Of a stretch of 30,861 bases of DNA, positions 1,086 through 21,694 are shown one piece after another. The first letter of the stretch is position 1. Each line of letters starts with the position of its first letter. A model generated the notes under the pieces. It searched no databases and was not told the origin of the DNA. It saw only the letters and a program-made list of their open reading frames with translations. Origin of the DNA: an uncultured bacterium (GTDB lineage Bacteria > Gemmatimonadota > Gemmatimonadetes > Palauibacterales > Palauibacteraceae); the NCBI GenBank assembly GCA_965371255.1, contig CBDUXS010000001.1, positions 1-30,861 on the forward strand. Reading direction: 5' to 3'. Made by a program: the position numbers and the translations under genes.

Positions 1086-2072
1086 TCAAGCCATGTGAAC
1101 GAGTTCCGCCCGGCCGTTCAGTATCTTGCGAGCCGTCTCGTGTGGTGCTCCGAAACAGGCGGTCGCAGCGGCATCCGCCGCCAGGCATGAGTCAGCCGCC
1201 ACCGTGACCGTGTGACCCTTTGTGCGACGGGGCTCTCCGGTTTCCGGGTTGAGGATGTGGTGATAGCGCCTCCCGTTGAAATCGAAGAAGGCCTCGTAGT
1301 CCCCCGATGTTGCAATCGCTCGATCGGACAGGCTCATTGTTGCGAGAAAAGACGACGGGTCTGTGGGCGAGCGGACACCGGCCTCCCAGGGTTCGCCGTC
1401 CTCGGCACGCCCCAGGGCATACAGATCGCCGCCGACATTCACGAGCCCGTCCCGAATCCCAGTGTCGCGAAGGGCTGCCACCGCCAGATCAACAGCGTGA
1501 CCCTTGGCGATCCCGCCCAGGTCAATCGCCAGATCCTGCTCATGAAACCGGACGACGTCGCGGTCCTGCCGGAGACCGACTTCGAGGTTCTCGTACAACC
1601 GGCGATCTGCGTACCGGCGGGTTTCGACCAGTGGAGGGGGTGTCCTTCGATTCCCCACGTCCCACAACTGGACGGCGTTTCCGAGGCACGGATCGAAGCG
1701 GCCTCCGCTCCATGAGGCCCACTGAATGCCGGCCCGCAGCACGGCAGCTGTCTCGGCGTGCACCAGCACCGGCTCACGCGCGGCCAGTTGGTTCGCCCTC
1801 CCCACATCCGAGGAGACGTCAAACCGGGTCATCGTGCGATCGACCCAGAACAGGCACTCGGCTGCGGCTTCGATGGCCGCCTGGGCGAGTCGTTCGTCCT
1901 CGTGCACGACGACGATCTCGGCGATCGAACCCATCACAGGAATGGTGCGGCGAACGAGTCGACGATGCGTCGCCCAGCGGACCAGCGGCAGTGAGACGAC
2001 GAACGCGCCGATCCCCAGCGAAATCAATTCCCGGCGAGATGGTAGCCAGATGCCGTTGTCATGCATTGTCAT
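1086..2072 (-). CDS. apbE: FAD:protein FMN transferase (ApbE/Ftp)
   Basis: Motifs VMGS, FDPCLG, IDLGGIAKGHAVD, VNVGGDL, IATSGDYE, YHHILNPETG, ADAAATA. Start at 2072 or 2066. N-terminal SRRELI followed by a hydrophobic segment. Confidence 0.95.
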   Translation of the reverse strand: MTMHDNGIWLPSRRELISLGIGAFVVSLPLVRWATHRRLVRRTIPVMGSIAEIVVVHEDERLAQAAIEAAAECLFWVDRTMTRFDVSSDVGRANQLAAREPVLVHAETAAVLRAGIQWASWSGGRFDPCLGNAVQLWDVGNRRTPPPLVETRRYADRRLYENLEVGLRQDRDVVRFHEQDLAIDLGGIAKGHAVDLAVAALRDTGIRDGLVNVGGDLYALGRAEDGEPWEAGVRSPTDPSSFLATMSLSDRAIATSGDYEAFFDFNGRRYHHILNPETGEPRRTKGHTVTVAADSCLAADAAATACFGAPHETARKILNGRAELVHMA

Positions 2073-2205
2073 CAGAGGACTCCCATTCCTCGCAGATGCC
2101 CGTACATCCGGCACAGTTGCCGGTACAATCCGATCTATGCCGAACGAATCCGAAAGCTACGAACAGAACGGCCATGATCACGATTCCCGTCACAGCTTCA
2201 ATCAT
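2059..2205 (-). CDS. 48-aa membrane microprotein with CX3CX2CX3C motif
   Basis: MIEAVTGIVIMAVLFVAFGFVRHRSDCTGNCAGCTGICEEWESSDDNA. Its ATG overlaps the rnfA stop (ATGA) and its 3' end overlaps the apbE start, filling the gap exactly. Hidden at the end of track ORF 2059..2901. Confidence 0.75.
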   Translation of the reverse strand: MIEAVTGIVIMAVLFVAFGFVRHRSDCTGNCAGCTGICEEWESSDDNA

Positions 2206-2780
2206 GTGCTGAACAGGCCGGCGAAACCCATGAATGCCAGCGACAGCGAACCGGCGATGATCAGGACCAGGCCCATGCCCCTGGCAAGCGCCGGCACGGT
2301 AGCCAATTCGGTCTGTTCCCGGATCGAGGCCATGAGCACGAGCGCCAGTGTGAGGCCGAGGCCCGCGCCGATGGCGAAGAACAGACCCTCGAGGAACCCG
2401 TAGCCGCGATTCGTCTGGAAAATCGCGAGGCCCAGGATCGCGCAGTTCGTCGTAATGAGCGGCAGGAAGATCCCCAGTTCGCGGAACAGGGTCGGGCTCA
2501 CCTTCTTGATCGTGATTTCCACGATCTGGACCAGCGACGCGATGACGACGATGAACGAGATCAGGCGCAGGTAGGGGGCCGCCGCCAGTACGAACGTGTT
2601 GAGCACCCAGGCCGTCATCGAGGTAAGCACGAGGACGAAGATGTTCGCCGCTCCCATCCGCAGCGCCGTATCGACCCGGGCGGACACGCCCATGAACGGG
2701 CAAAGCCCGAGGAACAGCGCCAGCGTGAAGTTGTTGACCAGCATCGCCGACACCAGAATCCATACGAGGTCGCCCATCAT
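2202..2780 (-). CDS. rnfA: Rnf complex subunit A
   Basis: LVNNFTLALFLGLCPFMG, FLPLITTNCAILG, GSLSLAFMGF. ATG at 2780 overlaps the rnfE stop; the track ORF is over-extended upstream. Confidence 0.95.
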   Translation of the reverse strand: MMGDLVWILVSAMLVNNFTLALFLGLCPFMGVSARVDTALRMGAANIFVLVLTSMTAWVLNTFVLAAAPYLRLISFIVVIASLVQIVEITIKKVSPTLFRELGIFLPLITTNCAILGLAIFQTNRGYGFLEGLFFAIGAGLGLTLALVLMASIREQTELATVPALARGMGLVLIIAGSLSLAFMGFAGLFST

Positions 2781-3439
2781 GCGTGCCTCCCCGTCTTTGA
2801 ACCCACGCCGTGCGGCCACTCCCGGACCACCGTCCGTTCCTGACGACGACTCGCCAGCCAGCCGAAGGCCAGCAGGATGAATCCGAGCGTGAAAAACCCA
2901 CCGGGCGGCAGGATCATGATGATCCATGGCTCGTAAGAACCTCCGAACAGCGGAAAGCCCAGCAAGCTCCCGTACCCGAGGATTTCTCGGATTCCGCCGA
3001 TCATCAGCAGGGCGATGATGAATCCGGTGCCGGTGCCGACGGCGTCCAGCAGGGCTCGGGCCACGGGACGCTTCGAGGCGAACGCCTCCTGCCGCCCGAG
3101 AATCATGCAGTTGACGACGATGAGCGCGATGAAAGCGCCGAGCGCCTTGTGAATATCCGGTACGACAGCGGCCAGTACCATGTCGGCGACCGTGACGAAG
3201 GTCGCGATGATCAGGATGTAGGCGCTGATACGGACCTCGTGCGGGATGACATTCTTGAGCATCGAAACGAACAGGCTCGAGCCGACCAGAACGAAGAACG
3301 TCGCCAGGCCCATCGCCAGGCTGTTCGCCACAGTGTTCGTCACCGCGAGAGCCGGGCACAGCCCGAGCAACTGGACGAGTACGGGATTCTCACGCCAGAC
3401 GCCGCGCGCGAGGTCGTAAGTGGGCGTGGTGGCTCTCAT
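2777..3439 (-). CDS. rnfE: Rnf complex subunit E
   Basis: WRENPVLVQLLGLCPALAVT, ALIVVNCMILGRQEAFASK, MILPPGGFF. Confidence 0.95.
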   Translation of the reverse strand: MRATTPTYDLARGVWRENPVLVQLLGLCPALAVTNTVANSLAMGLATFFVLVGSSLFVSMLKNVIPHEVRISAYILIIATFVTVADMVLAAVVPDIHKALGAFIALIVVNCMILGRQEAFASKRPVARALLDAVGTGTGFIIALLMIGGIREILGYGSLLGFPLFGGSYEPWIIMILPPGGFFTLGFILLAFGWLASRRQERTVVREWPHGVGSKTGRHA

Positions 3440-4104
3440 GGCGTGTTGGTCCGCACCGCGGCAGCCGGGCGCGAAGCTTCGTACGCGAGCAGATAGGGCT
3501 CCAGCTCTTCGAGTCGGTGGTTGATGATCTTGATGACCGTCCGGGACGAGATCGTGGCGCCGGTAATCATGTCGACCTCGTGGGCGTCGCCGGTCCCGCG
3601 GCCGGCCTTCACGCCGACCAGCGGTGGAACCGGATCGGAGAACCCAGCCACGAATCCCGTGTCCTTCTCGATCTTGTCACCGAGCCCCGGTGTTTCCTTG
3701 CTCTCGAGGACCTTCATGCCCCGGACCTGGCCGCTTGTCGGATCGAACGCGAACAGAAGGCGGATCATGTCCTGGAATCCGGGCTCGCCGCCCGCAATCG
3801 CGAATCCGGTCGGGCGATCGCTCGCATCGTAGCCGACGTAGACGCGGTCCAGACCCACCGAATCCACGGCCGCGGGGAGGTCCGAGGTAAAACCGCCATC
3901 GACGAGGAACAGGGTTTCATAGCGCTCGGGACTCCCGAGAACTTCCTGGATCGCCTCACGGAGGACCTCTGCGCGATGGGCCGTGATTTTCGGCTCGGCC
4001 CAGCTGTTTACGAGGACGAGCAGCAGGCCGGCGAGCGCTCCGGCAACGGTCAGCGTCCCCATGAGTCGGGCGGCAGGCTGATCGGTCGTGTGTAGTTCGG
4101 TCAC
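3436..4104 (-). CDS. rnfG: Rnf complex subunit G (FMN-binding)
   Basis: N-terminal TM helix, ETPGLGDKI, FMNylation motif ITGATISS. GTG at 4104 overlaps the rnfD stop. Confidence 0.93.
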   Translation of the reverse strand: MTELHTTDQPAARLMGTLTVAGALAGLLLVLVNSWAEPKITAHRAEVLREAIQEVLGSPERYETLFLVDGGFTSDLPAAVDSVGLDRVYVGYDASDRPTGFAIAGGEPGFQDMIRLLFAFDPTSGQVRGMKVLESKETPGLGDKIEKDTGFVAGFSDPVPPLVGVKAGRGTGDAHEVDMITGATISSRTVIKIINHRLEELEPYLLAYEASRPAAAVRTNTP

Positions 4105-5105
4105 GCCGACACCTCCTCGCGGCCATGGCCGAACACGCGCGGCTGTGTCACCCGGTTGATGAACGGAACGAGCGCGTTCATCAGCAGGATGGCGTACATC
4201 ACGCCTTCCGGCAGGCCACCCCAGGTTCGAATCAACACCACGAGCACGCCGATCCCGATCCCGAATATCCATGCCCCGGCGTTCGTGACCGGAGATGTGA
4301 CCATGTCGGTAGCCATGTACATGGCACCCAGAATGAGGCCACCGGAGAACAGCATGAACAGCGGGCCCGGATAGCGTGATGCGTCGATCGCGTGGAGCAC
4401 CGCGGACAACGCGGCCACGGTCGCAAAGATGCTCGCCGGAATCCGCCAGTTCAGATAGTTCTTGAGCGCCAGGTAGCCGCCGCATGCGAGAATGAGCAGG
4501 CCGGCGGTCTCGCCCAGCGAGCCGCCGGTGCTGCCCAGCATCAGGCCGCCGATATCGGTGGGGATCGCATCGAACTTCCACAGACCCAGCGGCGTGGCGG
4601 CGGTCACCACGTCAGGCGCGTTCGCACTCAGGAGCGGCGGTGCGAAATTGTCACCTCGCAACTGGCCCCAGGACGCGTCCAACCCGGGCCAGGTCGTGAT
4701 CGCGATCGGAAACGCCGCCTGCAGAAATGCCCGTCCAATGAGCGCCGGGTTGAACACGTTCTGCCCCAACCCGCCGAACAGGAGCTTTCCGAATCCGATT
4801 CCGAAGGCTCCGCCGAGGAACGCCATCCACATCGGCATCCCGGCCGGAAGTATCAGGCCGAGCAACAGTCCCGTGATGACGGCCGAGCCGTCTCCGAGCG
4901 AATCCTGGCGGCCGACGGCCCTTTCCGTGAGCACGGCGCCCGCGGTGGCGGCCGCAATGACGAGCAGGGCGCTGGGGCCGGAGAAGTACGTGGCAGCGGC
5001 GACCACAGGGATGAGGCTGCCGACCACGGACCACATGATGCGGCGCGTCGTATCGGGCGCCGTGAGATGCGGCGGCGCCGTGAGTTCCAGCCTCACGCCG
5101 TTCAT
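4101..5105 (-). CDS. rnfD: Rnf complex subunit D
   Basis: PPHL, GSAVITGLLL, FGGLGQNVFNPALIGRAFL, TAATPL, GSLGET, FMATD-like YMATDMVTSP, YAILLMN. ATG at 5105 overlaps the rnfC stop. Confidence 0.95.
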   Translation of the reverse strand: MNGVRLELTAPPHLTAPDTTRRIMWSVVGSLIPVVAAATYFSGPSALLVIAAATAGAVLTERAVGRQDSLGDGSAVITGLLLGLILPAGMPMWMAFLGGAFGIGFGKLLFGGLGQNVFNPALIGRAFLQAAFPIAITTWPGLDASWGQLRGDNFAPPLLSANAPDVVTAATPLGLWKFDAIPTDIGGLMLGSTGGSLGETAGLLILACGGYLALKNYLNWRIPASIFATVAALSAVLHAIDASRYPGPLFMLFSGGLILGAMYMATDMVTSPVTNAGAWIFGIGIGVLVVLIRTWGGLPEGVMYAILLMNALVPFINRVTQPRVFGHGREEVSA

Positions 5106-6430
5106 GCCGCTTGCTCCTTCTGCCGGCGCAGCCCGGCCTTTCCGAGCGCGAACAACTGCGACAGAGGGAGGTTGGACGGACACACGTACGAGCAGCACCC
5201 GCACAGCATGCAGTCCAAGAGGCCGGCCCGCTCCATGTCCTCGTACCGGCCGGCCTGGGCCAGCACCCCAAGCTGCTGGGGATTCAAGAACACCGGGCAC
5301 GAGTCCAGACAGCGCCCGCACTTGATGCACGGATAGGATTCCCGGGGCTTCGTCTCGGCGTGCGTGAGCGCCACGATTCCGGTCGTGCCCTTGATCACGG
5401 GCGCGTCCAGGTCCGGCTGGCAACCGCCCATCATGGGTCCGCCCAGCACGATCTCGGCCACGTCATCCGTCAGGCCGCCGCAGTAGTCCAGTACGTCGCG
5501 GAGCTTCGTTCCGACGGGCACGATGAGGTTCGACGGGTTCCGCACCGCCGGCCCTGTCACGCTGACGACCCGCTCGATCAACGGGAAGCCCGTTTCGAAT
5601 ACTTCGGCGATCGCGGCGATCGAGCCCACGTTCTGCACGACGGTCCCAACGTGGGCCGGGAGTTTGCCCGACGGCACCTCGCGGCCGGTAACCGTTTTGA
5701 TCAGCATCTTTTCCGCGCCTTGCGGATACTTCACGGTCAGGGGAAGGATCGTAATGTCCAGATCTACCGGCCGGGCTGCCTCGAGCGCCGCAATCGCGTC
5801 CGGTTTGTTCTTCTCGACGCCGATTACGACGCGTTCGACACCGAGCGTATGCATCATCACCCGGATTCCGAAGTGCACGCGCTCGGGGTACTCGACCATC
5901 ACGCGATGATCGGTCGTCAGGTAGGGCTCGCATTCGGCCCCATTCACCAGCAGCAGGTTTACCTTTACGCCCTCGGGCGGAAGCAACTTGACGTGCGTGG
6001 GAAACGCCGCGCCACCGAGGCCCACCACACCGGCCTGCTGCACTGCGGCAACGACCTCATCCGGGGACAGGCCTTCCCAATGCGGCACGATCCGGGGCCG
6101 CGGGATTTGCGGCGAGTAGGGCTCCACGGCGATCCGCACTGCCGTGGCCACACTACCATCCGGGTGGGGCCACAGATCAATGTCGGTCACGCGTCCGGCC
6201 GCCGATGTGTGGATAGGGACCGAGATGAACCCGTCGGCCTCCGCAATCATGTCACCCCGCTCAACCCGGTCGCCCTGCTTCACGAGCAAGCGGGCGGACT
6301 TTCCGGCGTGCTGGCGCAACGGCAGAACGATGTCTTCCGGAAACGGCATGCGGCGGATCGGAACCCCTGCTGTAAGGTGCTTGGAGTCCGGGGGATGGAC
6401 ACCATGCCGAAACGTCGGGCGGCGCAACAT
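5102..6430 (-). CDS. rnfC: Rnf complex subunit C (NADH/FMN site, 2x[4Fe-4S])
   Basis: GVHPP, AGVVGLGGAAFPTHVK, NGAECEPYLTTD, KYPQGAEKMLI, GGPMMG, CIKCGRCLDSCP, CMLCGCCSYVCP. ATG at 6430 lies 5 nt after the PFOR stop. Confidence 0.95.
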   Translation of the reverse strand: MLRRPTFRHGVHPPDSKHLTAGVPIRRMPFPEDIVLPLRQHAGKSARLLVKQGDRVERGDMIAEADGFISVPIHTSAAGRVTDIDLWPHPDGSVATAVRIAVEPYSPQIPRPRIVPHWEGLSPDEVVAAVQQAGVVGLGGAAFPTHVKLLPPEGVKVNLLLVNGAECEPYLTTDHRVMVEYPERVHFGIRVMMHTLGVERVVIGVEKNKPDAIAALEAARPVDLDITILPLTVKYPQGAEKMLIKTVTGREVPSGKLPAHVGTVVQNVGSIAAIAEVFETGFPLIERVVSVTGPAVRNPSNLIVPVGTKLRDVLDYCGGLTDDVAEIVLGGPMMGGCQPDLDAPVIKGTTGIVALTHAETKPRESYPCIKCGRCLDSCPVFLNPQQLGVLAQAGRYEDMERAGLLDCMLCGCCSYVCPSNLPLSQLFALGKAGLRRQKEQAA

Positions 6431-6435
6431 GGCAG

Positions 6436-9400
6436 TCAGTTGAACGGCCGGGCGCGCTCGATCCACTTATCCAGGTCCTTCTCTCGCGGGTTGAGCGGCG
6501 TCCCGGGATGGATGATCGCGGCCGGGCATTTCTCCGCGGCCTTGACGAGTTGCGCGAATGTGCCGGCGGCAGCGTCCTTGATATACGCCTGCTTGTTGTC
6601 GTCGTAGGCGAACAGCTTCTTGTTGATGTCGAGGCAGTCATCGCAGGTCGTGCACAGAGCCGTCTCGATGTACGGCGCCATCGCGAGATCCTCGTCATCG
6701 TCCTCCGTTTCAGGCTCGGCGGCGGGCGCTGTCGCCACAGCCGCCTGCTCGGTCACTGAGGCGGTTCCGGTCGAGTCCCCTGCGAACGGCTCGACCAGGT
6801 CGGCGCCACGCGCAGAATTGAACGACACCGGCGGTGCGCTTGCTGCTTCTCTCAGCAGGTCCTCGATCGTCCGATTTCCGTCCCCTGCACCAAGCAGTCC
6901 TGCCGCGAGCCGCCTCGCTACGAGCTTCGGATAGTCCGCCTTCAGCTCCTTAATTCGGGATTCGTAGTCCGAGCGAATTGCCTCCGCCCGGATCTCGAAT
7001 TCGGCCTCAAGGTGAGCTGTATCGAGCCCGGCCAGTTCCTTGAGCTGGGACCAGAACAGCTGGCGGTCCTCGGCCAGCTCGACGATCTCGCTGGACACGC
7101 TCAGGCGGTCGAGGCGCCGATCGTCCCGCAGTGTGTAGACGAATGGTGCATGGTCCTCGCGTTCGTCGGCCGACAGGTCGAAGTACTCATGGAACGGCAA
7201 GTAGTCTTCGTCCGCATCATCCGGAATCGGCCTGAAGTGTTTCCTGAATCGGCCTTCCGTGGCGGCCCAGTCGGCGATCGTGAGCGGGAGGTCCATCGTC
7301 CGCTCGGCCCCCTCGTCGTCCACGTAGGCAAGCTCGTAGCTGGGCCATGCGTCCTCGACGTCGGGATTCCCCTCCAGATCGAGACAGTCGGCGACCGTGT
7401 CCCCAGCGTCGGGATCGTACACCAGAAACGGAAACGCCCGGCTCTCGAGCGCCAGCTTGGCGGAGTGCGGCGCCCACTCGTCGGCGACACCGTGCTCGAC
7501 CGGACAGGGCGTGTAGATGTTGAACACGGCCGGGCGTCGGGAGTTGAGGCCGCGCAGGATGCCCTGCATCATGTGCGAGGCCGACGCCTGCGACGTTTGC
7601 AGCACGTACGCGCCCCTGTGGGCCAGGGCGATGAGGGCCATCTCCTTGCGGGTCTCTTCTTTCCCGTGCTGCACCTGCCCGTAGGCCGCCATGTCGGCGA
7701 TCTGCCCCGTGAATCCGCTCGTGCACGACTGCCCGCCTGTGTTGGAATACACCTGCGTGTCGAGGACGACGACGCGAATCGGTTTTCCGGACGCGAGCAA
7801 CCGCGACAGGTTCTGGAATCCGATGTCGAGCATCGCACCGTCGCCGCCCATCGCCAGGATCGGCGGACACAGGTGGAATTCGTCGTCGTCGAACTGCGTC
7901 CAGTCGAAGGCTCCGAAGAACGGTTCGTGCTCGTCGGCGTCGTACTCGTCGCGAGCCAACAACTCGGCCCGACGGATGCTGATGAAGTTGTCCGCCATTT
8001 TCCGCATGTGGCCCTCGAACAGGCCGATCGCGATCGACGGAGCGTCCTGGAACAGATGGTTGACCCAAGGGAAAGGGTACGGATTGTAGGGGTACGTGCT
8101 TCCCCATACCGACGAACAGCCCGTGGAGTTGCTGATCCCCATCGGCGCGCGTCCCTGCCCGCCGGGCCCTTCCACGTAGCGCCAGCGCAGGTCCTTCAGC
8201 TCATCGATCGCGCGGTTCAACAGGCGCAACCGTTCACCCGCGGCCGCATCCAGTGAGACGTCCACGTGGTCACCTTCCGCCTGACTCAGGCCCGCCACGT
8301 CGGCGTGGGACCCGACCAACTCGCGCGCCTTCCTGTCGAGCCGCTCAAGCAGGTCATCGAGGCGTGCGACCAGCGCTTCCACCCGCGGGATCATCAGCCC
8401 CTCGATCGTCGAAACGAGGATATGCACGGCCGTCTTCTCTCCGCAGCCCATGCATGCACCGTCACCGCCCACCATTGAACCGTAGTTTTTTTTCTTCAGC
8501 AGAAGCGAGGAGAGCACACCAATGCCCTCGTCGAGGTTTGAGATGTTGACGTAGCGGTCGTCCGTGTCGGGCAGGTTCTCCCACAGCCGCCAGTTACGGC
8601 GCAACTGCGCGACATTTTCGTCGTCCTGGCGAACCGTGATCAGCGCACCTTCCGGACACACGTCCACGCAGATGTTGCAGCCCTTGCAGGCCATCGGATT
8701 GACCGTGATGGACAGCAGGCCCCCCGTGCCCTTTTCGCGCGACTCGGGCAGGCCGAAGAACGGGCGCGTCCGTGCCAGGGGGAATCCGGCGATGTGCGGA
8801 AACACCGCGGCGAACTCCTCATCCACGGCCTTCCGGCGCTCGGCGTCCCAGTCGAGTTTCTCGATGACGTTCTGATACGCGGAGGTGAGCACGTCACCAA
8901 ACGTCGTAAACGGAACGCCCTGCATGATCTTGCGGGATTCCCGCCCGAGATGCCCGGAGATCTGCGTCAGGCGATTGAACGCGCGACCGTTTGACGCCGT
9001 CGCGATCGCCGCGTCGATCACCTCTTCCACAGTGTTTACCACCCCGGGGATCGCGGCGTCCGGGCACTGAATCCAGCACTGGCTGCACCCGGTGCACTTA
9101 TCCGCGATGAACTCGGGGATCTCGAACCGGATGTTCGTCATGTCCCGCACGCTGCTCGTGGCGGCCGGGATGGCGCTGATCGCCGCGAACGGGTCCGCGA
9201 TCACGTCTTCACCGGTCGTAGCGCAGAAAGCGCACACCTGCTCCCAGAAGCGCCCTGGATTCCCGACTCCGGGCTGCGCCTGCGGCACGTTCAGTCGACT
9301 CGGCAGCTCGGGCATCGCGTGCTCGCCGGGTTCGTCCGTTCCCACGTCTCCGTGCGGCACCGGCGTCAACTCGTCGAATCCGCGCCGAATGACGCGCACG

Positions 9401-11451
9401 TTGTCCTCGACAACGCGCTCGCCTTTGCCTCCGAACTTGGCCTGCATCTGGGCACGGATTCCGTCGAAAAGGGTCGCCTCGTCCAGGCTCTCGCGCTTCA
9501 TCAGCGGCGAAATACGGAAGAATGCGCCCAGGAAAGCCGCCCCCTGCATGCGGTAACGCAACTCGGCGTCCGAAGCCTCGCTAGTGGCGATTTCGAACCC
9601 GTCGACTGCGTGGACCTGGATTCCGCGCTCGACGATCGTGCGGCGGGCACTTGTCGGGAAGGATTCCCAGACTTCCTCCGGGCTCCTGTCACTCTGGATG
9701 ACGAACACGCCGCCCGCCGCCAGCCCGGCGAGCGGATCGCCGTTGCGGAAGACATTGGGATCCGGTGACAGGACGACGTCCACGTATCGGAGTTCCGCGT
9801 TGATCCGGAGCGGTTCTCGCGACAGCGTCGCATAGAAGTTCGTGGGTTGCCCCTTCTTCTCCGATCCGTACTTGGGATTCGCCTTTACGTTCAGACCCAG
9901 GAGTTCGAACGCCGTGAGCGCGATGTTCTTGCCCATCGTGATCGCCCCCCATCCACCGATCGAGTGGATGCGGAGCGAAATCGAATCCTCCGGCAACAGG
10001 TTCACATCGTCCGCGGGAGGCAGCGCCAGCCCAGAAATGTGCGGGTAGGCTTCCAGCAGCTGCTCCTGCCAGATCTGGAGCTTGGGAGCCTTCGTGTCCC
10101 GATGGATGAAGTCGATGGAGAGGTAGTACTGACGCAGACCCTTGCCCTCGGGCAGCATGTTGTCTACGGCAGCCAGCAGATCAGCGGGTTGCAGGTCGCG
10201 GCTCCCGAACCCGAAGCCCGCCGAATAGAACTCCGGCATGTCGTCGGGCGACACCGGAGTGAGACCGGCGTAGGGAGTCCCGCTCCGGGCCCGCCAGTTC
10301 TCCATCCCCTGGGCCAGGGCGACGCGGATCTCCCGCAGCAACGGCGCCTCTACAGCCAGGGGCTGATCGGTCCGCTCGAGTACGGTGACCGCTCGCTTGC
10401 CGTGCAGCAGGGCCGTCACGAGATCGGCCGGGAAGGGACGGAACATCGTCAGGTTGAGAACGCCCACCTTCAGACCGCGCTCGGCTCGCAGATAGTCGGC
10501 CACCGCCTCGGCGTTGGGCACGACCGACCCCTGGCCAGCCAGCACGTAGTCGGCGTCGTCGAGCCGGTATCCTGATGCCCGGCGGTACATGCGGCCCGTG
10601 AGCTTCTCGTATTCCTCCATGGCCCGGTCGGTCAACTCGGCCACGTGGTCGAAGTAGTACGGCCGCTGCGCTGCGACACCCTGGGCGTACGATTCCTGAT
10701 TCTGAATCACTCCGAACATCGCCGGATAGTCCAGGTCGAACATCTCCGGAATGCGCCGTCGTGTGGCGCCGTACACGAGGCGCTGGGCGGGTGTCGGGCA
10801 ATCGATCACATCCGCGGGGTCGCCCAGGTACTCCTTGATCAGCTCCCGCTCGGGAAGCCGGATGGACTCGATTACGTGACTGGTGAGAAACCCATCCTGC
10901 GCGCTCATTCCCGGGTTGAGCGACAGTTCGGCGATCCTGTGCGCGATCAGCGTGAGGTCAGCTGATTCCTGAACGTCTTTGGCGAACAACTGGAAGAAAC
11001 CCGTGTCGTCGATCGCGTGGTAGTCGTCGTGGCCGGCATGCACGTTGAGGGCATGTTTGGTCATCGCACGCGCCGCGACATTGAGCACGTAGGTAAGGCG
11101 CTTGCCGACGGCCGCGTATAGCGACTCGTGCATGTACGCGATTCCCTGGCCGCTCGAGAAATTGGCAGCCCGCAGCCCCATCATGCTCATGCCGGCCGTC
11201 ACCGCAGCCGCAGCGTGCTCCCCCTCCGGCTCGAAGAAAATCAGCCGTCGCCCGTTCACGTTTCTCTTGCCTGCGGCGACTGCTACCGCCCAGCCCTCAC
11301 CCATCTGCGTGGACGGCGTGATCGGATAGGCGCCCGCCGCCTCGCTGGCGGCCGTCTCCATCGCCACGACGGCCTCGCTCCCGTCCATCGCCTCCAGGAT
11401 GCCCGGATACCTGGGCGGGGCGGGTTCGACGTTGCGGCTACGCTTCAACAT
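6436..11451 (-). CDS. nifJ: NifJ-type pyruvate:ferredoxin oxidoreductase, enlarged (1671 aa), with fused C-terminal ferredoxin
   Basis: YPITPST, NVAARAM, CTGCSQCWIQCP, CKGCNICVDVCP, GACMGCGE, STGCSSVWG, GGDGAMLD, YSNTGGQ, PCP. Equivalents of the pyruvate-binding Thr/Arg/Asn are present. C-terminal CTTCDDC...KCP. Confidence 0.92.
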   Translation of the reverse strand: MLKRSRNVEPAPPRYPGILEAMDGSEAVVAMETAASEAAGAYPITPSTQMGEGWAVAVAAGKRNVNGRRLIFFEPEGEHAAAAVTAGMSMMGLRAANFSSGQGIAYMHESLYAAVGKRLTYVLNVAARAMTKHALNVHAGHDDYHAIDDTGFFQLFAKDVQESADLTLIAHRIAELSLNPGMSAQDGFLTSHVIESIRLPERELIKEYLGDPADVIDCPTPAQRLVYGATRRRIPEMFDLDYPAMFGVIQNQESYAQGVAAQRPYYFDHVAELTDRAMEEYEKLTGRMYRRASGYRLDDADYVLAGQGSVVPNAEAVADYLRAERGLKVGVLNLTMFRPFPADLVTALLHGKRAVTVLERTDQPLAVEAPLLREIRVALAQGMENWRARSGTPYAGLTPVSPDDMPEFYSAGFGFGSRDLQPADLLAAVDNMLPEGKGLRQYYLSIDFIHRDTKAPKLQIWQEQLLEAYPHISGLALPPADDVNLLPEDSISLRIHSIGGWGAITMGKNIALTAFELLGLNVKANPKYGSEKKGQPTNFYATLSREPLRINAELRYVDVVLSPDPNVFRNGDPLAGLAAGGVFVIQSDRSPEEVWESFPTSARRTIVERGIQVHAVDGFEIATSEASDAELRYRMQGAAFLGAFFRISPLMKRESLDEATLFDGIRAQMQAKFGGKGERVVEDNVRVIRRGFDELTPVPHGDVGTDEPGEHAMPELPSRLNVPQAQPGVGNPGRFWEQVCAFCATTGEDVIADPFAAISAIPAATSSVRDMTNIRFEIPEFIADKCTGCSQCWIQCPDAAIPGVVNTVEEVIDAAIATASNGRAFNRLTQISGHLGRESRKIMQGVPFTTFGDVLTSAYQNVIEKLDWDAERRKAVDEEFAAVFPHIAGFPLARTRPFFGLPESREKGTGGLLSITVNPMACKGCNICVDVCPEGALITVRQDDENVAQLRRNWRLWENLPDTDDRYVNISNLDEGIGVLSSLLLKKKNYGSMVGGDGACMGCGEKTAVHILVSTIEGLMIPRVEALVARLDDLLERLDRKARELVGSHADVAGLSQAEGDHVDVSLDAAAGERLRLLNRAIDELKDLRWRYVEGPGGQGRAPMGISNSTGCSSVWGSTYPYNPYPFPWVNHLFQDAPSIAIGLFEGHMRKMADNFISIRRAELLARDEYDADEHEPFFGAFDWTQFDDDEFHLCPPILAMGGDGAMLDIGFQNLSRLLASGKPIRVVVLDTQVYSNTGGQSCTSGFTGQIADMAAYGQVQHGKEETRKEMALIALAHRGAYVLQTSQASASHMMQGILRGLNSRRPAVFNIYTPCPVEHGVADEWAPHSAKLALESRAFPFLVYDPDAGDTVADCLDLEGNPDVEDAWPSYELAYVDDEGAERTMDLPLTIADWAATEGRFRKHFRPIPDDADEDYLPFHEYFDLSADEREDHAPFVYTLRDDRRLDRLSVSSEIVELAEDRQLFWSQLKELAGLDTAHLEAEFEIRAEAIRSDYESRIKELKADYPKLVARRLAAGLLGAGDGNRTIEDLLREAASAPPVSFNSARGADLVEPFAGDSTGTASVTEQAAVATAPAAEPETEDDDEDLAMAPYIETALCTTCDDCLDINKKLFAYDDNKQAYIKDAAAGTFAQLVKAAEKCPAAIIHPGTPLNPREKDLDKWIERARPFN

Positions 11452-12299
11452 CTTGCTTCACTTTCAACCAGTTCCAGATCCGGAAAGACTTGCGCCCCAT
11501 CTACCCAGACGATCGCGTTCGTCGGGCAACGGGCGATCGCGGCCGGGTTCTCCAGTTCGATCCGCTCGTAGTCAATCACTGCGAGGCCCGAGCGCATCTC
11601 GATCAGCCCGGGATCCGCGTCCGCCACGCAGCGGCTGCAGGCGTTGCAGGCGACCGAGCAGACCGATGTTGCCGCCTCGCCGTCGAGCAGGTTTCGGCAC
11701 TGGACGATCAGGTGGTGGTGTTCCGGCATCAGCACGAACAGGTCGAGCGGGCAGGCGACCACGCAGTCATTGCACGCAGTACAGTTTTCCGGAATGACTA
11801 CCGGCAAGCCGAAGGACGTCATGCGGATCGCCTCGAACGTGCACGCGACCGCGCAGTCGGCCAGACCGACACAACCCCACGCGCATCCCTTCCCGCCTCC
11901 GCTGACGGACACGGCCGCGGCACAGCTCTCGAGGCCATAGTACTCGGCCTTCTGAACTGCTACATCAGATCCGCCGGCGCACAACAGACGGGCAACCCGC
12001 TTTTCCACTTCGCCCGCCTCCACTCCGAGCGTTTCCGCAAATTCCTCGACCTCGAACTCGCCCATCACCGTGCACTCGGCCGGGACCACGTCACCGTGGA
12101 TCGCAGCCTCCGCGAACGCCCGGCAGCCGACGTAGCCGCAGGCTCCGCAGTTCACGCTGGGCAGGATGTCGGACAGCAGATCGATCCGTGGATCTTCCCA
12201 TACCTTGAGCTTCCAGTGGGCCAGCGCGATCAACATTCCGAAGGTGAGGCCTACCCCACCCAGAATCGCTACCGGCGTCAGAAACGAGGCGACATCCAC
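11445..12299 (-). CDS. rnfB: Rnf complex subunit B (membrane-anchored polyferredoxin)
   Basis: N-terminal TM helix, EDPR, LPSVNCGACGYVGC, CAWGCVGLADCAVAC, CTACNDCVVACP. The terminal ferredoxin domain is partly degenerate. Confidence 0.93.
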   Translation of the reverse strand: MDVASFLTPVAILGGVGLTFGMLIALAHWKLKVWEDPRIDLLSDILPSVNCGACGYVGCRAFAEAAIHGDVVPAECTVMGEFEVEEFAETLGVEAGEVEKRVARLLCAGGSDVAVQKAEYYGLESCAAAVSVSGGGKGCAWGCVGLADCAVACTFEAIRMTSFGLPVVIPENCTACNDCVVACPLDLFVLMPEHHHLIVQCRNLLDGEAATSVCSVACNACSRCVADADPGLIEMRSGLAVIDYERIELENPAAIARCPTNAIVWVDGAQVFPDLELVESEARC

Positions 12300-12311
12300 G
12301 GATCGATCCCC

Positions 12312-13334
12312 TCAGGCGCCGGGTGCGAGGTCGGCCTGCTGCAGGAGCCAGCCTGCCAGGCGGTCTATGGGATCATCGTCTTTCCGTCCCTCCTGTCCGG
12401 CGACGACCGACGACGCGGGAGCCGCGGAATTCGATGGCCGGGTGCTCGCCAGTTCGCCGAGATGTGCGAGATCCTCCGTCTGACGGAAGCTCGACAGGGA
12501 TCCGATGGCATGCAGGGTCCCGGGATCAGGGAGTTCACCGACCGAGAGCCGATCGGCGTAGACGGCACCGGCATCCGGATCATGAACGAAGGGGATCAGC
12601 CCTTCGGAACCCACGGCGGCGACGGCGGGCCCGGAAAACGAGGCCACGCGGGCGAGGTCATCGGCCTCGTGGGTCTGTACGACGAGCACGTGCGGCGACA
12701 CCAGGCGCGCGAGCGGCGCAGGCGCCGCCGTGCCGCGCACCACGAGAACGATCTTTTGCGCCCCGTCGAGAAACTCTGCCAGGGCAGCCGTGTCGAGGTC
12801 GCTGCCATTCACATCGATGAACAGCGGTGGCGCCACGGCCCGTTCGCCGCGACTCCACAGCGAAAAGGCGTAGCCGTGAGGAAGGCTTCCGGGATCCAGT
12901 GCCGAGCCGTGGCCATCCAGCAACGGCGCCACCTGCCGAATCACTCCGAACACGCGCCCAACCTCGGCCAGGGTCTTCGCCGCAGTGTCCCGCAGATCTC
13001 CCCCCGACGGGACACGGGCGCACAACAGATCCGTGCCCCTGGATTCGGCAGCCGTGAGCGTTTCGAGGGCCCGCTCAACATGACGCAGGTCATCCGTCTC
13101 GAGAGTCTCGGGTGGCGCAAGAAGGGCCGAAAAGAGCCTCGCATCGACGTGACCGGCACCGAACGCTCCGAGTTCCGCGGCTACGAGCTCCTCGGGCTCG
13201 CCACGGGATGTCCCGTGCCGGACGAGAAATGCCCGCAAGTCCTCGATCGCCCGGGCAAGCGACGAGTGGAAGGCCTCAGATGGCGCCTGCATCGCCGCGA
13301 GCGCCTCCGTCATCAGCGAATCTTCAGACGGCAT
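12312..13334 (-). CDS. Hypothetical protein; degenerate paralog of the PFOR C-terminal (TPP-binding) region
   Basis: Intact 340-aa ORF overlapping the korB stop. Collinear motif matches to the neighbouring PFOR, e.g. PFVHDPDAG vs FLVYDPDAG. Lacks GDG, YSNTGGQ and the cluster Cys. Confidence 0.8.
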   Translation of the reverse strand: MPSEDSLMTEALAAMQAPSEAFHSSLARAIEDLRAFLVRHGTSRGEPEELVAAELGAFGAGHVDARLFSALLAPPETLETDDLRHVERALETLTAAESRGTDLLCARVPSGGDLRDTAAKTLAEVGRVFGVIRQVAPLLDGHGSALDPGSLPHGYAFSLWSRGERAVAPPLFIDVNGSDLDTAALAEFLDGAQKIVLVVRGTAAPAPLARLVSPHVLVVQTHEADDLARVASFSGPAVAAVGSEGLIPFVHDPDAGAVYADRLSVGELPDPGTLHAIGSLSSFRQTEDLAHLGELASTRPSNSAAPASSVVAGQEGRKDDDPIDRLAGWLLQQADLAPGA

Positions 13335-14274
13335 GGCGGTCGAGCTCCTCGTTCAGGATGGCGACTTTCTCGGCCGCGGTCTTTGCCGGCGCGCGCCGCA
13401 TCTGCTCGTAAATCGGCAAAGACTCGTTTCGGTACAGAATCCCGATGCGAACCTTGTCCTCGTCCTCCGCCAGTCGTCGGGCCTCGTCAAGGTCGGACGG
13501 ATCATGCCGCACACGGTCCTGGTAGCGAGACTCGAGCGCCTTGATGTCCAACCCATCCTCGTGGACAAGGAGCTGCACGGAATCCGGGTTTTTGGGGGCG
13601 TCGCCGAACATGTCCGGCGTAAAGTGCGGACATCGCTGAAGGACGCGCACGAAAGAAAACCCCGGATGGTGATATGCCGCCTGCAGGGTTGCAAACAGGT
13701 GAGCCGGGATCCACTCGGCCGTCTGGGCCACGAAAGAGGCGTTCGTGATTCCGAGCGAGGCGACCACCGGGTTGATCGGCGGTAACCAGCTTCCCTGCGG
13801 TTGCGTGTTGCTCACGTATCCCTGAGGCGTGGTCGGGGACGTTTGCTTCTTGGTCATTCCGTAGATCTGGTTATCGAGCAGCAGCGCGACCATGCCCACG
13901 TTGTAGCGAATCGCGTGCACCCAGTGCCCGGCTCCGATCGAGACGCAGTCCCCGTCCCCCATCACGACGAACACGCTCAGGTCCGGCCGGTGGAGCTTGA
14001 CACCCGTGGCGATCGGGAGGGCCCGGCCGTGGATGCCGTGGAACCCGTACGTGCTCATATAGTGGGGAAACCGGCTCGAACAACCGATGCCGGACACAAA
14101 GACCGTCTTCTCGGGAGGGAGGTTTTCCTCGGCGAGCAGTCGCTGCATGGAGGCAAGGACCGAATGGTCACCACAGCCCGAGCACCAGCGGGCCTGCGCC
14201 CCTTCGTAATCGGACATGCCGAACTCGCGATCGTACTCTCCCGCAATCTGTAACAGCGAACAGGCCATGCTCAC
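13324..14274 (-). CDS. korB: 2-oxoacid:ferredoxin oxidoreductase beta subunit (TPP-binding); substrate not certain
   Basis: WCSGCGD, SGIGCSSR, HGIHGRALPIATG, MGDGD, DNQIYGMTKKQTSPT, QRCP. GTG start overlaps the korA stop with GGAGG upstream. Confidence 0.9.
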   Translation of the reverse strand: MSMACSLLQIAGEYDREFGMSDYEGAQARWCSGCGDHSVLASMQRLLAEENLPPEKTVFVSGIGCSSRFPHYMSTYGFHGIHGRALPIATGVKLHRPDLSVFVVMGDGDCVSIGAGHWVHAIRYNVGMVALLLDNQIYGMTKKQTSPTTPQGYVSNTQPQGSWLPPINPVVASLGITNASFVAQTAEWIPAHLFATLQAAYHHPGFSFVRVLQRCPHFTPDMFGDAPKNPDSVQLLVHEDGLDIKALESRYQDRVRHDPSDLDEARRLAEDEDKVRIGILYRNESLPIYEQMRRAPAKTAAEKVAILNEELDRHAV

Positions 14275-16208
14275 TCCGAGCCTCCTTCGGACAGGTTGGA
14301 GCGAATCACATCGAGGATCACCCCCGGACGCAGCGGCTCGCCGAGCACGCGGGTCCAGCAGTCCACGTCACACAAGGTCTGGGCCCGCAGGAGCCAGGTG
14401 AGCTGCCCGCGGCGGCGGTTTTCATCGGTGATGTATGGCATGTCCGGATCGTCGCTGTAGTTGATCTCGATGGTCATCACTTTCTTGAATCGGCCAAAAA
14501 TCTCCTTCAGGCCGGGCTCGAGCGGAGACAGGAAGCGCAGGTGAAGGCTGGAAACAGACAGGCCTTCGTCGTTTGCCCGGTCGACTGCCTCCTCGATCGC
14601 GCCCTTCGTGGATCCCCAGCCGACAAGCAGTAGGTCACCGGATTCGTCGCCGTTCACGGTTGGCGGCACGAGCGAGCGCTGCAGCACGGCCAACTTGCGG
14701 CTTCGCATGGCACTGCCCCGCTGATTGACCTCCGACGTGTAGGCGACTTTGCTCCCCTCGTCGTGCGCGAGCCCCGTCACTGTGTGCATGCCTCCCGGCT
14801 GACCCGGGATGAACCGACGGGACAGGCCCGTGCGGGAATCCCAGTCATAGGGCCTGAGGTTGTCGGGAATCGGGCTCTGGTCTGGGGCGGGCGCTTGCCA
14901 GGCAGTGTCCAGTTCGGGGCGGTGGAAGGGCTGGACACCAGTCGCCAGATTCGTATCCGACAGGACCATGACGAGCGTGCGGAAAGTCTCGGCAATCCGC
15001 CGCGCCGTAATCATCACGTGAAAACACTCTTCTATCGTGGCCGGCGCGATGATCACATGAGGGGCATCGCCCGGCTGCCCGAACATTGCGGCGAGCAGGT
15101 CGGACTGCTCGATCTTCGTTGGGAGGCCGGTGCTGGGGCCTCCACGTTGCACGTTTACGAGGACGAGCGGGATCTCGGTCATCACGGCGAGACCGAGGAA
15201 CTCCGTCTTGAGTGCCAGTCCGGGTCCGGACGTGATCGTGAATGCAACCTTGCCGCTGTATGAAGCCCCCAGCGCTACGCCAGCGGCGGCGATTTCATCT
15301 TCAGCCTGGTGAATGATCCCACCGTAATGCTGGAAGACGCTGCCGAGATGATGAGATACCGAACTGGCAGGAGTGATGGGATACATCGCGGCGAGCTCCA
15401 TGCCCGACGCGATCGCGCCCATCGCGATGGCCTGGTTGCCGTTCATCACGACCATCGCCTCGTCCGTCACGGCTGTGGGTACGCGGATACGAAAGTCGAG
15501 GTTGTTGCGAGCCCAGTCGATGCCCGCATCCAGCATGAGGAAGTTCCGATCGATGATCGCCTGGCTCTTTTTCTTGAACACGAAGGCGATCTGCTTGCGG
15601 ACCAGCTCGGCGTCTCGCCCGTAGATCTCCGTCAGCATGCCGAGGGCAAACATGTTCTTGCCCAGTGTCGGATCCTCGACCAACTGTGCGCACACCTCGT
15701 GCATCGGGACCTCAATGATCCGATAACTCGTATTTGAGAGCTCTTCGAGGGCCGCACGCCACTCGGCCTGAATGTCCTCGTCCGGGTGGTCCGCCCACCG
15801 ATTCTCGAGCAGGATGACCGCGTCGTGTTCGAGCGCCCCGAGGCGATGCCGATACAACAGGACCTGCTCGTTGAACGCTATTACGAGGTTGGTACGATCT
15901 CCCCAGTTCGTTACCGGCCCGGAACCGAGGCGGATGCGGTTTCCGCTGGCAGCGGTGGGATTTCGCGGGGGAGGCTGCACCTCGGAGGGGATGATTTCTA
16001 CCGTCCACACCCCGTTTCCCATCTTGGCGGACACGGTGCCGAACAACTGACCACAGCGCTGCGCCCCCTCACCGGGGTCGGACACGACCTCAACGGTGTG
16101 GGAAGAGGTTTCCAGCGTTTTCGACTCGGGCGCAGCGGGAGCATCCAATTCGAGCATTGGAAGTCTAGTCATCATGCCAGATTTCGCCGTGTTTCGCATT
16201 CGCGTCAT
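14271..16208 (-). CDS. korA: 2-oxoacid:acceptor oxidoreductase alpha subunit (gamma-alpha fusion)
   Basis: MNGNQAIAMG, YPITP, QAEDEIAA, TSGPGLALKTE, VQRGGPSTGLPTK-EQSD, VGWGST. The exact start is uncertain (16208, 16199, 16175 or 16157). Confidence 0.9.
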   Translation of the reverse strand: MTRMRNTAKSGMMTRLPMLELDAPAAPESKTLETSSHTVEVVSDPGEGAQRCGQLFGTVSAKMGNGVWTVEIIPSEVQPPPRNPTAASGNRIRLGSGPVTNWGDRTNLVIAFNEQVLLYRHRLGALEHDAVILLENRWADHPDEDIQAEWRAALEELSNTSYRIIEVPMHEVCAQLVEDPTLGKNMFALGMLTEIYGRDAELVRKQIAFVFKKKSQAIIDRNFLMLDAGIDWARNNLDFRIRVPTAVTDEAMVVMNGNQAIAMGAIASGMELAAMYPITPASSVSHHLGSVFQHYGGIIHQAEDEIAAAGVALGASYSGKVAFTITSGPGLALKTEFLGLAVMTEIPLVLVNVQRGGPSTGLPTKIEQSDLLAAMFGQPGDAPHVIIAPATIEECFHVMITARRIAETFRTLVMVLSDTNLATGVQPFHRPELDTAWQAPAPDQSPIPDNLRPYDWDSRTGLSRRFIPGQPGGMHTVTGLAHDEGSKVAYTSEVNQRGSAMRSRKLAVLQRSLVPPTVNGDESGDLLLVGWGSTKGAIEEAVDRANDEGLSVSSLHLRFLSPLEPGLKEIFGRFKKVMTIEINYSDDPDMPYITDENRRRGQLTWLLRAQTLCDVDCWTRVLGEPLRPGVILDVIRSNLSEGGSE

Positions 16209-16211
16209 CGG

Positions 16212-16233
16212 GCGCTGAGCAAAAACTCAGCGC
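16212..16233 (-). promoter_or_regulatory. Perfect 8-bp hairpin in the predicted 5' UTR of the korA-rnf operon
   Basis: GCGCTGAG-CAAAAA-CTCAGCGC, ending 3 nt upstream of the first possible korA ATG. Confidence 0.45.
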
Positions 16234-16323
16234 ACCTATATCAGCGCGTTTCCGGACATGTTTCGGATAAGCAGACCGTCGGCCCGAAAACCACCGTCAA
16301 AAGCCGCCTTGAAACGATAATAG

Positions 16324-16352
16324 ATAATAGGATCTACTTATCTAAGTTACAA
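16324..16352 (-). promoter_or_regulatory. sigma70-type promoter for the kor/por/rnf operon, overlapped by a palindrome
   Basis: Minus strand TTGTAA (16352-16347), 17-nt spacer, TATTAT (16329-16324), in an AT-rich patch. Inverted repeat TAGATAA-N10-TTATCTA at 16321-16344. Confidence 0.65.
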
Positions 16353-16403
16353 GAGGACAGGGGTATGCTTGTGATATGTGCCAGGAATTTGAGGCGACGA
16401 GTT

Positions 16404-17006
16404 TCAGCAGGCGCAGTCGTCCCCTCGCCAGGCGCGCCTCGCCTCGAATGCGATGATCGGGATCATCGCAAGCGCCGCCATGGGGTCGGCCCACCACCAG
16501 CCCAGCAAGGCGTTGAGTCCGAGGCCCGCGAGCAAAATCGCGGAAAGATACGCGCAAAGGTCTGTCTGGCGGGAATCGGCCCTCAGCGCGGCGCTATCCA
16601 AGCCCGCGGCAACTCGCCGCTTTGCCCGCGCCAGCACAGGCATCACGACGAGCGACACGGCCGCGAGGACAATTCCGACGATGCTGTCGTCCGGGGCCGA
16701 CTGCTCTCGCAGGGTCAGGACGGACTCGACGCCGATATAGGCGGCGAGAGCCACGAAGCTTGCCGCCACGAGTCGTTGGGCCACTCGCTCCCGCGCCTCA
16801 CCCGACTCCGGGTCCGCCAGGCGCCACAACAGCACGCCGCCGGACAGGCTCTCGATGAGCGAGTCGATGCCGAACCCGATGAGCGCCGTGCTGCCGGCTG
16901 CGAATCCAGCCAACCCGGCGACCACCGCCTCGATGAGGTTCCAGCCCAGTGTGAAGTACTCGAGCCGGCGGCCCCGACGGGTGAGGGCGTCGCGCCGATC
17001 AGGCAC
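16404..17006 (-). CDS. Cation diffusion facilitator family transporter, transmembrane domain only
   Basis: LEYFTLGWNLIEAVVA, ALIGFGIDSLIE, ALRADSRQTDLCAYLS, GWWWADP; six TM segments, no cytosolic C-terminal domain, ends CAC. Confidence 0.85.
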   Translation of the reverse strand: MPDRRDALTRRGRRLEYFTLGWNLIEAVVAGLAGFAAGSTALIGFGIDSLIESLSGGVLLWRLADPESGEARERVAQRLVAASFVALAAYIGVESVLTLREQSAPDDSIVGIVLAAVSLVVMPVLARAKRRVAAGLDSAALRADSRQTDLCAYLSAILLAGLGLNALLGWWWADPMAALAMIPIIAFEARRAWRGDDCAC

Positions 17007-17012
17007 CCTGCT

Positions 17013-17195
17013 CTACGCTCGGGTCTCTTTCCAGAGCAGCAGCGACAGGCTCCCGAATACGAGAACGACGAGCACACTAGGCCACATCGGGACTTCCAGC
17101 GTGCCCACCACGAACGCCCAGCCGAGCACCAGACGTAACAAGTGGCCAAAAGCGATGATTGCGAAGATGATCGCGGCGATGAGTGTCGGTTTCAT
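17013..17195 (-). CDS. 60-aa two-TM membrane protein
   Basis: MKPTLIAAIIFAIIAFGHLLRLVLGWAFVVGTLEVPMWPSVLVVLVFGSLSLLLWKETRA; AGGAGG RBS; stop lies 6 nt before the CDF start. Confidence 0.75.
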   Translation of the reverse strand: MKPTLIAAIIFAIIAFGHLLRLVLGWAFVVGTLEVPMWPSVLVVLVFGSLSLLLWKETRA

Positions 17196-17262
17196 GATGG
17201 CCTCCTGAGGGGTTGACAGGAAATATTTCACGGCCGGTAAGCGTCCGGCCTCTCGTTGGCAG

Positions 17263-17946: not shown

Positions 17947-17951
17947 TCCCC

Positions 17952-21553: not shown

Positions 21554-21665
21554 TCCAATCGTCTCAGCGTTTTATCGTGTCCGGGCGGCTGCATCGGCCA
21601 GCTGCCCGGGAATTGTTTGAGCAATGGTGATGGCGAGCACAATAAGCGATACGTCGATCTTTTTT

Positions 21666-21694
21666 ACTATATGTCGGGAGAACGAGTCTAACAA
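21666..21694 (-). promoter_or_regulatory. sigma70-type promoter for the porin-cytochrome-TPR operon
   Basis: Minus strand TTGTTA (21694-21689), 17-nt spacer, TATAGT (21671-21666), about 110 nt upstream of the porin ATG. Confidence 0.6.

Follow-up and report, generated by a model that had tools for sequence, protein, structure and literature searches.

A ferredoxin tethered to a PFOR-type enzyme encoded inside an rnf operon: a putative captive carrier between 2-oxoacid oxidation and Rnf

The window analysed here is the whole 30,861-nucleotide stretch of contig CBDUXS010000001.1 (GenBank assembly GCA_965371255.1), from an uncultured Gemmatimonadota bacterium of the family Palauibacteraceae. Its minus strand carries a gene for a single-chain 2-oxoacid:ferredoxin oxidoreductase of the pyruvate:ferredoxin oxidoreductase (PFOR) type, and the last 80 residues of the 1671-residue product, P0001, are best explained as a [4Fe-4S] monocluster ferredoxin. 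The final ~130 residues of P0001 are encoded by 6436-6830; the plus-strand reading of that segment gives nonsense on translation. The ferredoxin is in the same chain as the PFOR, with no intervening stop codon or change of frame, and is not a free small protein. An earlier sequence-only reading of this DNA had described a ferredoxin attached to the PFOR C-terminus by a linker, with the strand unstated, and every sequence element that it cited is found, on the minus strand. The features of the C-terminus are as follows.

6436-11451, minus strand: ferredoxin-tailed PFOR-type gene (P0001), an open reading frame (ORF) with translation, 1671 aa
6886-7017, minus strand: long helix of a stalk, residues 1479-1522 (44 residues), from AlphaFold2 models
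6838-6867, minus strand: short helix of the stalk, residues 1529-1538, from AlphaFold2 models; the whole stalk is 6838-7017
6679-6831, minus strand: linker rich in Ala, Pro, Glu and Gly, residues 1541-1591 (~51), ending in the acidic run ETEDDDED
6439-6678, minus strand: monocluster [4Fe-4S]-type ferredoxin with its tail, residues 1592-1671 (80), CTTCDDCLDIN...KCP, Fer4_13
6652-6654, 6643-6645, 6634-6636 and 6526-6528, minus strand: codons of the ligands C1600, C1603, C1606 and C1642, coordinates verified
6622-6624, minus strand: codon of Asn1610, an invariant residue
6439-6513, minus strand: conserved 25-residue tail IHPGTPLNPREKDLDKWIERARPFN, the C-terminal end of the ferredoxin domain
6436-6438, minus strand: PFOR stop codon

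The identity of the last domain is indicated by profile, ligands and predicted fold alike. Pfam matches residues 1598-1648 to Fer4_13 (PF13370) at 27.2 bits against a cut-off of 24.5 when the protein is searched, and the same domain scores 33.4 bits in the genome scan. The CxxCxxC...CP ligand set is complete (C1600, C1603, C1606 and C1642-P1643). The four ligand cysteines are invariant in both of our alignments of relatives (25 and 47 sequences) and are kept in 120 of the 120 homologues listed, where the residue following the last of them is Pro in 104 and Thr or Ser in 16. Asn1610 stands where a dicluster CxxCxxCxxxCP motif would have its fourth Cys, and it too is invariant (25/25 and 47/47 aligned relatives). 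A dicluster ferredoxin is ruled out by the single CxxCxxC motif together with this Asn, and [3Fe-4S] as the default reading is ruled out by the presence of the middle Cys. The earlier expectation of a single-cluster domain, based on that Asn, is supported.

By sequence, the nearest protein of solved structure in the Protein Data Bank is Desulfovibrio africanus ferredoxin I (1DAX/1FXR), at an E value of 2.1e-5. The AlphaFold2 model leads to the same protein: Foldseek places 1FXR best (TM-score 0.84, root-mean-square deviation 0.9 Å over 58 columns), VIA-align finds 1DAX at Z 8.0 with 63 of 64 residues aligned, and the entries that follow in the fold lists are other monocluster ferredoxins. In a model of residues 1330-1671 made with a 47-sequence alignment (model 1), ferredoxin and tail together have a per-residue confidence (pLDDT) of 94-98. 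Domain and tail are very strongly conserved (H1648, P1649, G1650, P1652, N1654, E1657, L1660, K1662, W1663, R1666, A1667 and F1670 are invariant). The tail is modelled inside the ferredoxin fold and aligns with the longer Bacillus thermoproteolyticus ferredoxin 1IQZ, so it need not be a docking peptide or an interface. Ligand pattern and fold are thus shared with D. africanus ferredoxin I (1FXR, 1DAX, 1DFD) and with the monocluster ferredoxins of Pyrococcus furiosus, Thermotoga maritima and B. thermoproteolyticus, and the 25-residue tail with the longer Bacillus-type ferredoxins. Those proteins are free, 6-9 kDa and acidic, whereas here the ferredoxin is a near-neutral C-terminal domain of a 1671-residue enzyme and has the invariant Asn1610. 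Taken together, sequence and model point to a ferredoxin of the D. africanus ferredoxin I type that presumably binds one [4Fe-4S] cluster. D. africanus ferredoxin I is a physiological acceptor of D. africanus PFOR.

The domain is reached through a helical stalk and a linker. The stalk helices fall at positions 150-193 and 200-209 of model 1 and at 130-173 and 180-189 of a second model. The long helix has a pLDDT of about 84-96, and the model stays above 90 up to its end. The linker drops to 46-63 between flanking parts above 90. Among the 47 relatives, the linker varies from 34 to 95 residues (median 52), is not conserved in sequence, and is composed of 28.6% Ala, 13.5% Pro, 10.2% Glu and 10.0% Gly; its closing acidic run is conserved, and of the last 14 positions a median of 6 are acidic. 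Here, the linker sequence is PVSFNS...TASVTEQAAVATAPAAEPETEDDDEDLAM and includes the string that the sequence-only reading had cited as an acidic flexible linker, a description that agrees with the low pLDDT, the variable length, the Ala/Pro-rich composition and the terminal ETEDDDED. A small carrier domain on a flexible Ala/Pro-rich linker of variable length is the arrangement of a swinging arm. Lipoyl swinging arms have Ala/Pro-rich inter-domain linkers, and the lipoyl domains of 2-oxoacid dehydrogenase E2 resemble the present case in being small carriers tethered to a partner in this way, with a different host and a different partner. By our own estimate from residue counts, a linker of the median 52 residues and the 44-residue helix could together span ~100 Å or more.

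The C-terminal addition to the PFOR seems to start near residue 1477. The sequence-only reading had also placed a helical segment between the domain that binds thiamine pyrophosphate (TPP) and the linker. Helices are indeed modelled there, but much of that segment looks to us, judged by eye, like the ordinary C-terminal region of canonical PFORs. When residues 1350-1541, which precede the linker, are modelled alone, Foldseek finds no match, and the same region in the larger model gives only generic long-helix matches. We claim no new fold for it, because it probably packs on the PFOR core.

The rest of P0001 has the alpha-gamma-delta-beta domain order of a single-chain PFOR and aligns with the solved enzymes of Moorella thermoacetica (6CIN) and D. 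africanus (1B0P). The Pfam domains of the host enzyme are as follows.

Residues 35-209: POR_N
Residues 300-382: PFOR_II
Residues 499-693: POR gamma
Near residues 786 and 922: Fer4 (4Fe-4S) motifs of domain V, CTGCSQCWIQCP and CKGCNICVDVCP
Residues 1197-1311: TPP_enzyme_C

The AYPITPST motif and the TPP motif GGDGAMLDIGFQNLS...DTQVYSNTGGQ are present and match those of active relatives. The proximal-cluster cysteines C1000, C1003, C1112 and C1316 are invariant, and with the two CxxCxxCxxxCP motifs of domain V they complete the ligand set of a three-cluster PFOR. Since YPITP, GDG...NTGGQ, the proximal cysteines and both domain V motifs are all kept, P0001 looks catalytically competent. It is not, however, a canonical NifJ with a tail: the NifJ equivalog TIGR02176 matches in three stretches at 396.2 bits, below its cut-off of 911.35, which makes P0001 a member of a divergent long PFOR clade. 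Domain order, TPP motif, proximal cysteines and domain V motifs are those of the single-chain homodimeric PFORs (D. africanus 1B0P/7PLM, 1231-1232 aa; M. thermoacetica 6CIN, 1171 aa; NifJ), but P0001 is ~440-500 residues longer, with inserts (for example, ~110 aa between the domain V motifs) as well as the C-terminal helix, linker and ferredoxin. Its gene also lies inside an rnf operon, and the known enzymes reduce free ferredoxin or flavodoxin. None of the solved PFORs (1171-1232 aa) has a ferredoxin tail. A PFOR review of November 2026 (PMC13768988) lists no domains beyond I-VII and says nothing of Gemmatimonadota or of a C-terminal ferredoxin, and our full-text searches of the literature turned up no account of a PFOR with such a tail or of one encoded within an rnf operon.

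The genes on either side give the enzyme its context. On the minus strand the order is korA, korB, a 340-aa ORF, rnfB, PFOR, rnfC, rnfD, rnfG, rnfE, rnfA, apbE, so that a full co-oriented rnfBCDGEA set adjoins the PFOR gene in the window.

14271-16208, minus strand: korA, from Pfam; korA and korB together match POR, POR_N, TPP_enzyme_C and PFO_beta_C
13324-14274, minus strand: korB, from Pfam, with the matches given for korA
12312-13334, minus strand: 340-aa ORF between korB and rnfB, with no Pfam or NCBIfam match
11445-12299, minus strand: rnfB of the long clostridial type (Pfam FeS and Fer4, NCBIfam rnfB); its stop overlaps the PFOR ATG
5102-6430, minus strand: rnfC (TIGR01945, 520 bits); ATG at 6430, 5 nt past the PFOR stop; N-terminus MLRRPTFRHGVHPP
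4101-5423, minus strand: rnfD, from Pfam and NCBIfam
3436-4581 (maximal ORF), minus strand: rnfG, from Pfam and NCBIfam
2777-3439, minus strand: rnfE, from Pfam and NCBIfam
~2202-2780, minus strand: rnfA, from Pfam and NCBIfam
1086-2114, minus strand: apbE, from Pfam and NCBIfam

The PFOR gene thus lies directly next to the gene of RnfB, to which the sequence-only reading had proposed that electrons are handed. RnfB matches its solved counterparts over its full length (Acetobacterium woodii 9ERI, E 4e-53; Clostridium tetanomorphum 7ZC6, E 1.4e-46) and is of the long type found in ferredoxin-oxidising Rnf complexes. The cytoplasmic domain of RnfB accepts electrons from ferredoxin in the forward mode (PMC12174285). 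The three functional parts of the anaerobe chain of PFOR, free ferredoxin and Rnf represented by 9ERI and 7ZC6 are therefore all here, but donor enzyme and carrier are a single chain, and the gene for the donor sits between rnfB and rnfC.

This layout recurs widely. A search with the C-terminal 292 residues finds this region in at least 876 protein clusters (at 90% identity). In species-representative genomes the matches number more than 500. Nearly all full-length relatives are 1640-1740 aa and have PF13370; they come mostly from Gemmatimonadota metagenome bins, and their database names are only '2-oxoacid:acceptor oxidoreductase family protein' or 'pyruvate-ferredoxin/flavodoxin oxidoreductase'. 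We compared gene order in 80 loci from species-representative genomes, each count of neighbours below being over the loci with enough flank. The order korAB-X-rnfB-PFOR-rnfCDGEA-apbE is found in nearly all of the 80, across several phyla; the loci are labelled Gemmatimonadota, Acidobacteriota/Thermoanaerobaculia, Armatimonadota, Planctomycetota, Gamma- and Deltaproteobacteria, and Rokubacteria. RnfB is directly upstream of PFOR in 63/65, RnfC directly downstream in 55/58 and KorAB upstream in 51/52, and the counterpart of the 340-aa ORF, 30-72% identical, keeps its place in almost every related locus. The ferredoxin domain is present in 66 of 67 complete C-termini, the exception looking frameshifted.

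Three loci depart from the pattern, one of them (L078) described further below. In a Thermoanaerobaculia bin (L079), rnfB follows PFOR rather than preceding it, and a 779-aa ORF resembling the C-terminal part of PFOR lies between korB and PFOR (L079:7190-9529 and 14620-15486 for this ORF and the shifted rnfB). A tblastn span had suggested a PFOR-RnfB fusion at this locus, but the ORFs are separate. In a Gemmatimonadota bin (L070), an insertion of ~7 kb (15088-21920) separates rnfC from the PFOR stop. Most of the shorter ferredoxin homologues, which might have been free ferredoxins, are contig-end fragments of the same PFOR. Three gene calls of 81-89 aa that start at 'MEPYIE' (P0176, P0197 and P0231) lie on contigs of 71-685 kb and may be split forms, internal starts, frameshifts or miscalls. 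A stand-alone paralogue of the ferredoxin plus tail, at 44% identity, occurs in another Gemmatimonadota genome (L086:3934-4230; G059:C3 ~1469903-1470181); it adjoins kdpD-like and kdpC-like genes, and its frame continues into apparent junk overlapping a gene on the opposite strand.

The nearest relatives outside the ~1680-aa family come from an exhaustive search with residues 472-1671 against 1.84 billion representatives. They are mostly long PFOR-like proteins of 1420-1640 aa in which YPITP, the TPP motif and the cysteines of the proximal cluster, all kept in P0001, are gone and the domain V motifs remain. Three such dead scaffolds (P0246, P0250 and P0260) carry the same ferredoxin-plus-tail module, three others (P0253, P0272 and P0297) are without it, and an 832-aa paralogue (P0294) also has a tethered ferredoxin. 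P0246, P0250, P0260, P0253, P0272 and P0294 resemble P0001 in their long-PFOR framework and their domain V motifs, and some of them also in the ferredoxin plus tail. Since the tethered ferredoxin occurs on dead scaffolds and on the 832-aa paralogue, its role appears to be wider than serving its own TPP site. It persists whether or not the scaffold is active, which suggests that the module has a carrier function of its own, and KorAB may use it too; we think it likely that the KorAB of the same operon is a second client.

The genome assembly is 1.46 Mb and 85% complete, and absences from it are suggestive only. In it we found no E2 acyltransferase (PF00198), no other [4Fe-4S] ferredoxin of the CxxCxxC...CP type and no small ORF with two dicluster motifs. 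The only POR_N genes are korA and the PFOR gene. Given that and the lack of an E2 acyltransferase, PFOR and KorAB may be the sole 2-oxoacid-oxidising enzymes. The only other Fer4_13 gene (L081:1441-1887, minus strand; G000:C133) has a C-x5-C...CP pattern (LCVGFGDC...CP), which is typical of [3Fe-4S] ferredoxins.

The reading that we favour, with somewhat more confidence than doubt, is that the tethered ferredoxin is a captive carrier, a swinging arm that would wire 2-oxoacid oxidation to the ion-pumping Rnf complex without a free ferredoxin. Its bases are synteny, the composition of the linker and homology to a ferredoxin that partners PFOR, and from these cluster binding, mobility, contact with RnfB and the direction of flow are inferred. 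As a captive one-electron carrier, the domain would dock at the distal cluster of PFOR domain V, possibly also at the single-cluster KorAB, and take up an electron. The loaded carrier would then move to the cytoplasmic polyferredoxin domain of RnfB. Oxidation of a 2-oxoacid, putatively pyruvate, would in this way drive Rnf to reduce NAD+ and translocate ions with no diffusible ferredoxin pool, and the same hardware could run in reverse. A more extended form of the idea, which we put forward only tentatively, is that PFOR, KorAB, the 340-aa protein and Rnf form one membrane-bound assembly with the tethered ferredoxin as sole carrier. It would be an ion-pumping 2-oxoacid:NAD+ oxidoreductase replacing the pyruvate and 2-oxoglutarate dehydrogenase complexes; if so, energy wasted by those complexes would be conserved, and low-potential electrons would be kept from oxygen.

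Several observations weigh against a mobile captive carrier feeding Rnf. The ferredoxin and its tail are extremely conserved, for which a fixed docking interface is an equally possible cause, and the domain is approximately neutral (median net charge 0), while typical soluble ferredoxins are acidic. The score below the TIGR02176 equivalog cut-off leaves pyruvate as a putative substrate only. An Acidobacteriota bin (L078, 9893-14968) has a ferredoxin-tailed PFOR without rnf or kor neighbours. The module is patchy in Gemmatimonadota, occurring in 51 of 295 good genomes and 32 of 127 genera, and on the former count it is an accessory one. Because the genome is incomplete, the absence of free ferredoxins or of pyruvate dehydrogenase is not established. 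The conservation and the charge, together with the conserved acidic run just before the domain, would suit a ferredoxin permanently docked on the PFOR dimer or within a stable PFOR-Rnf assembly, extending an Fe-S wire by one cluster, with the linker as a loop to its seat. We consider this unlikely, since 34-95 residues of unconserved sequence with pLDDT below 65 would be wasteful for a fixed seat, and the conserved tail is part of the ferredoxin fold, as in 1IQZ, and need not be an interface. An equally small chance is given to the carrier serving mainly KorAB or acting as a general hub, with electrons coming from KorAB, which is without domain V, and the PFOR body being a scaffold near Rnf. 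The dead scaffolds P0246, P0250 and P0260, which keep domain V and the ferredoxin, the 832-aa P0294 that carries it, the near-constant presence of KorAB in the loci, and the fact that two-subunit 2-oxoacid:ferredoxin oxidoreductases (OFORs) have one cluster only (PMC13768988) are all in line with this. The PFOR of the window keeps every catalytic motif, however, and must therefore pass on electrons of its own, for which the ferredoxin at its C-terminus is the closest acceptor; moreover, service to KorAB and service to PFOR do not exclude each other.

Flow in the opposite direction seems improbable as the main mode: Rnf would draw on NADH and an ion gradient to supply the tethered ferredoxin with electrons for reductive carboxylation by PFOR and KorAB, in the synthesis of pyruvate and 2-oxoglutarate. 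The pairing of PFOR and KorAB is typical of reductive tricarboxylic acid cycle chemistry, fewer low-potential electrons would be lost to O2 from a captive carrier, and both Rnf (PMC12174285) and OFORs (PMC13768988) are reversible. Against it, the solved complexes with this type of RnfB are ferredoxin-oxidising ones, and with no E2 acyltransferase found in the 85%-complete genome the OFORs may be the sole oxidative 2-oxoacid enzymes. We regard it as very improbable that the domain, instead of carrying electrons, senses redox state or oxygen or forms a protective cap, with a purpose like that of domain VII in the D. africanus enzyme. Many hosts are labelled Gemmatimonadota, which are often aerobic, and the known C-terminal PFOR addition, domain VII, is protective (PMC13768988); yet the domain here is an entire ferredoxin, with homology to a redox partner of PFOR, is not a disulfide switch, and is strictly associated with rnf, an association that protection would not explain.

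Two natural fusions resemble the proposed captive carrier. The pyruvate:NADP+ oxidoreductase (PNO) of Euglena and Cryptosporidium is a fusion of PFOR with cytochrome P450 reductase; it likewise tethers a redox carrier to PFOR, but the carrier is a flavoprotein and not a ferredoxin. CYP51fx of Methylococcus capsulatus is a natural P450 with a C-terminal ferredoxin domain (PMC7947880). There, the ferredoxin feeds its host, whereas here it most likely takes electrons away.

Textbook flow from PFOR to Rnf passes through a soluble ferredoxin pool. A captive ferredoxin, with the gene of its donor in the rnf operon, would mean a hard-wired route, possibly within a supercomplex. If true, such a route would give a higher local concentration of carrier and prevent cross-talk and oxygen leakage, and organisms of largely aerobic phyla would gain extra ion-motive force from 2-oxoacid oxidation or, in reverse, could drive carboxylation. 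The module also offers engineers a design ready-made by nature for pathways that depend on ferredoxin and need a defined route for their electrons.

Two further groups of genes lie on the minus strand of the window. One, at 17263-21553 on the upstream side of the kor-rnf cluster, is a row of three: a porin-like gene, then genes for a multihaem cytochrome c of 825 aa and a tetratricopeptide repeat protein. At 23179-28282 there is a cluster of genes for a type III polyketide synthase, an ICMT-family methyltransferase, an AMP-binding enzyme and an FAD monooxygenase.

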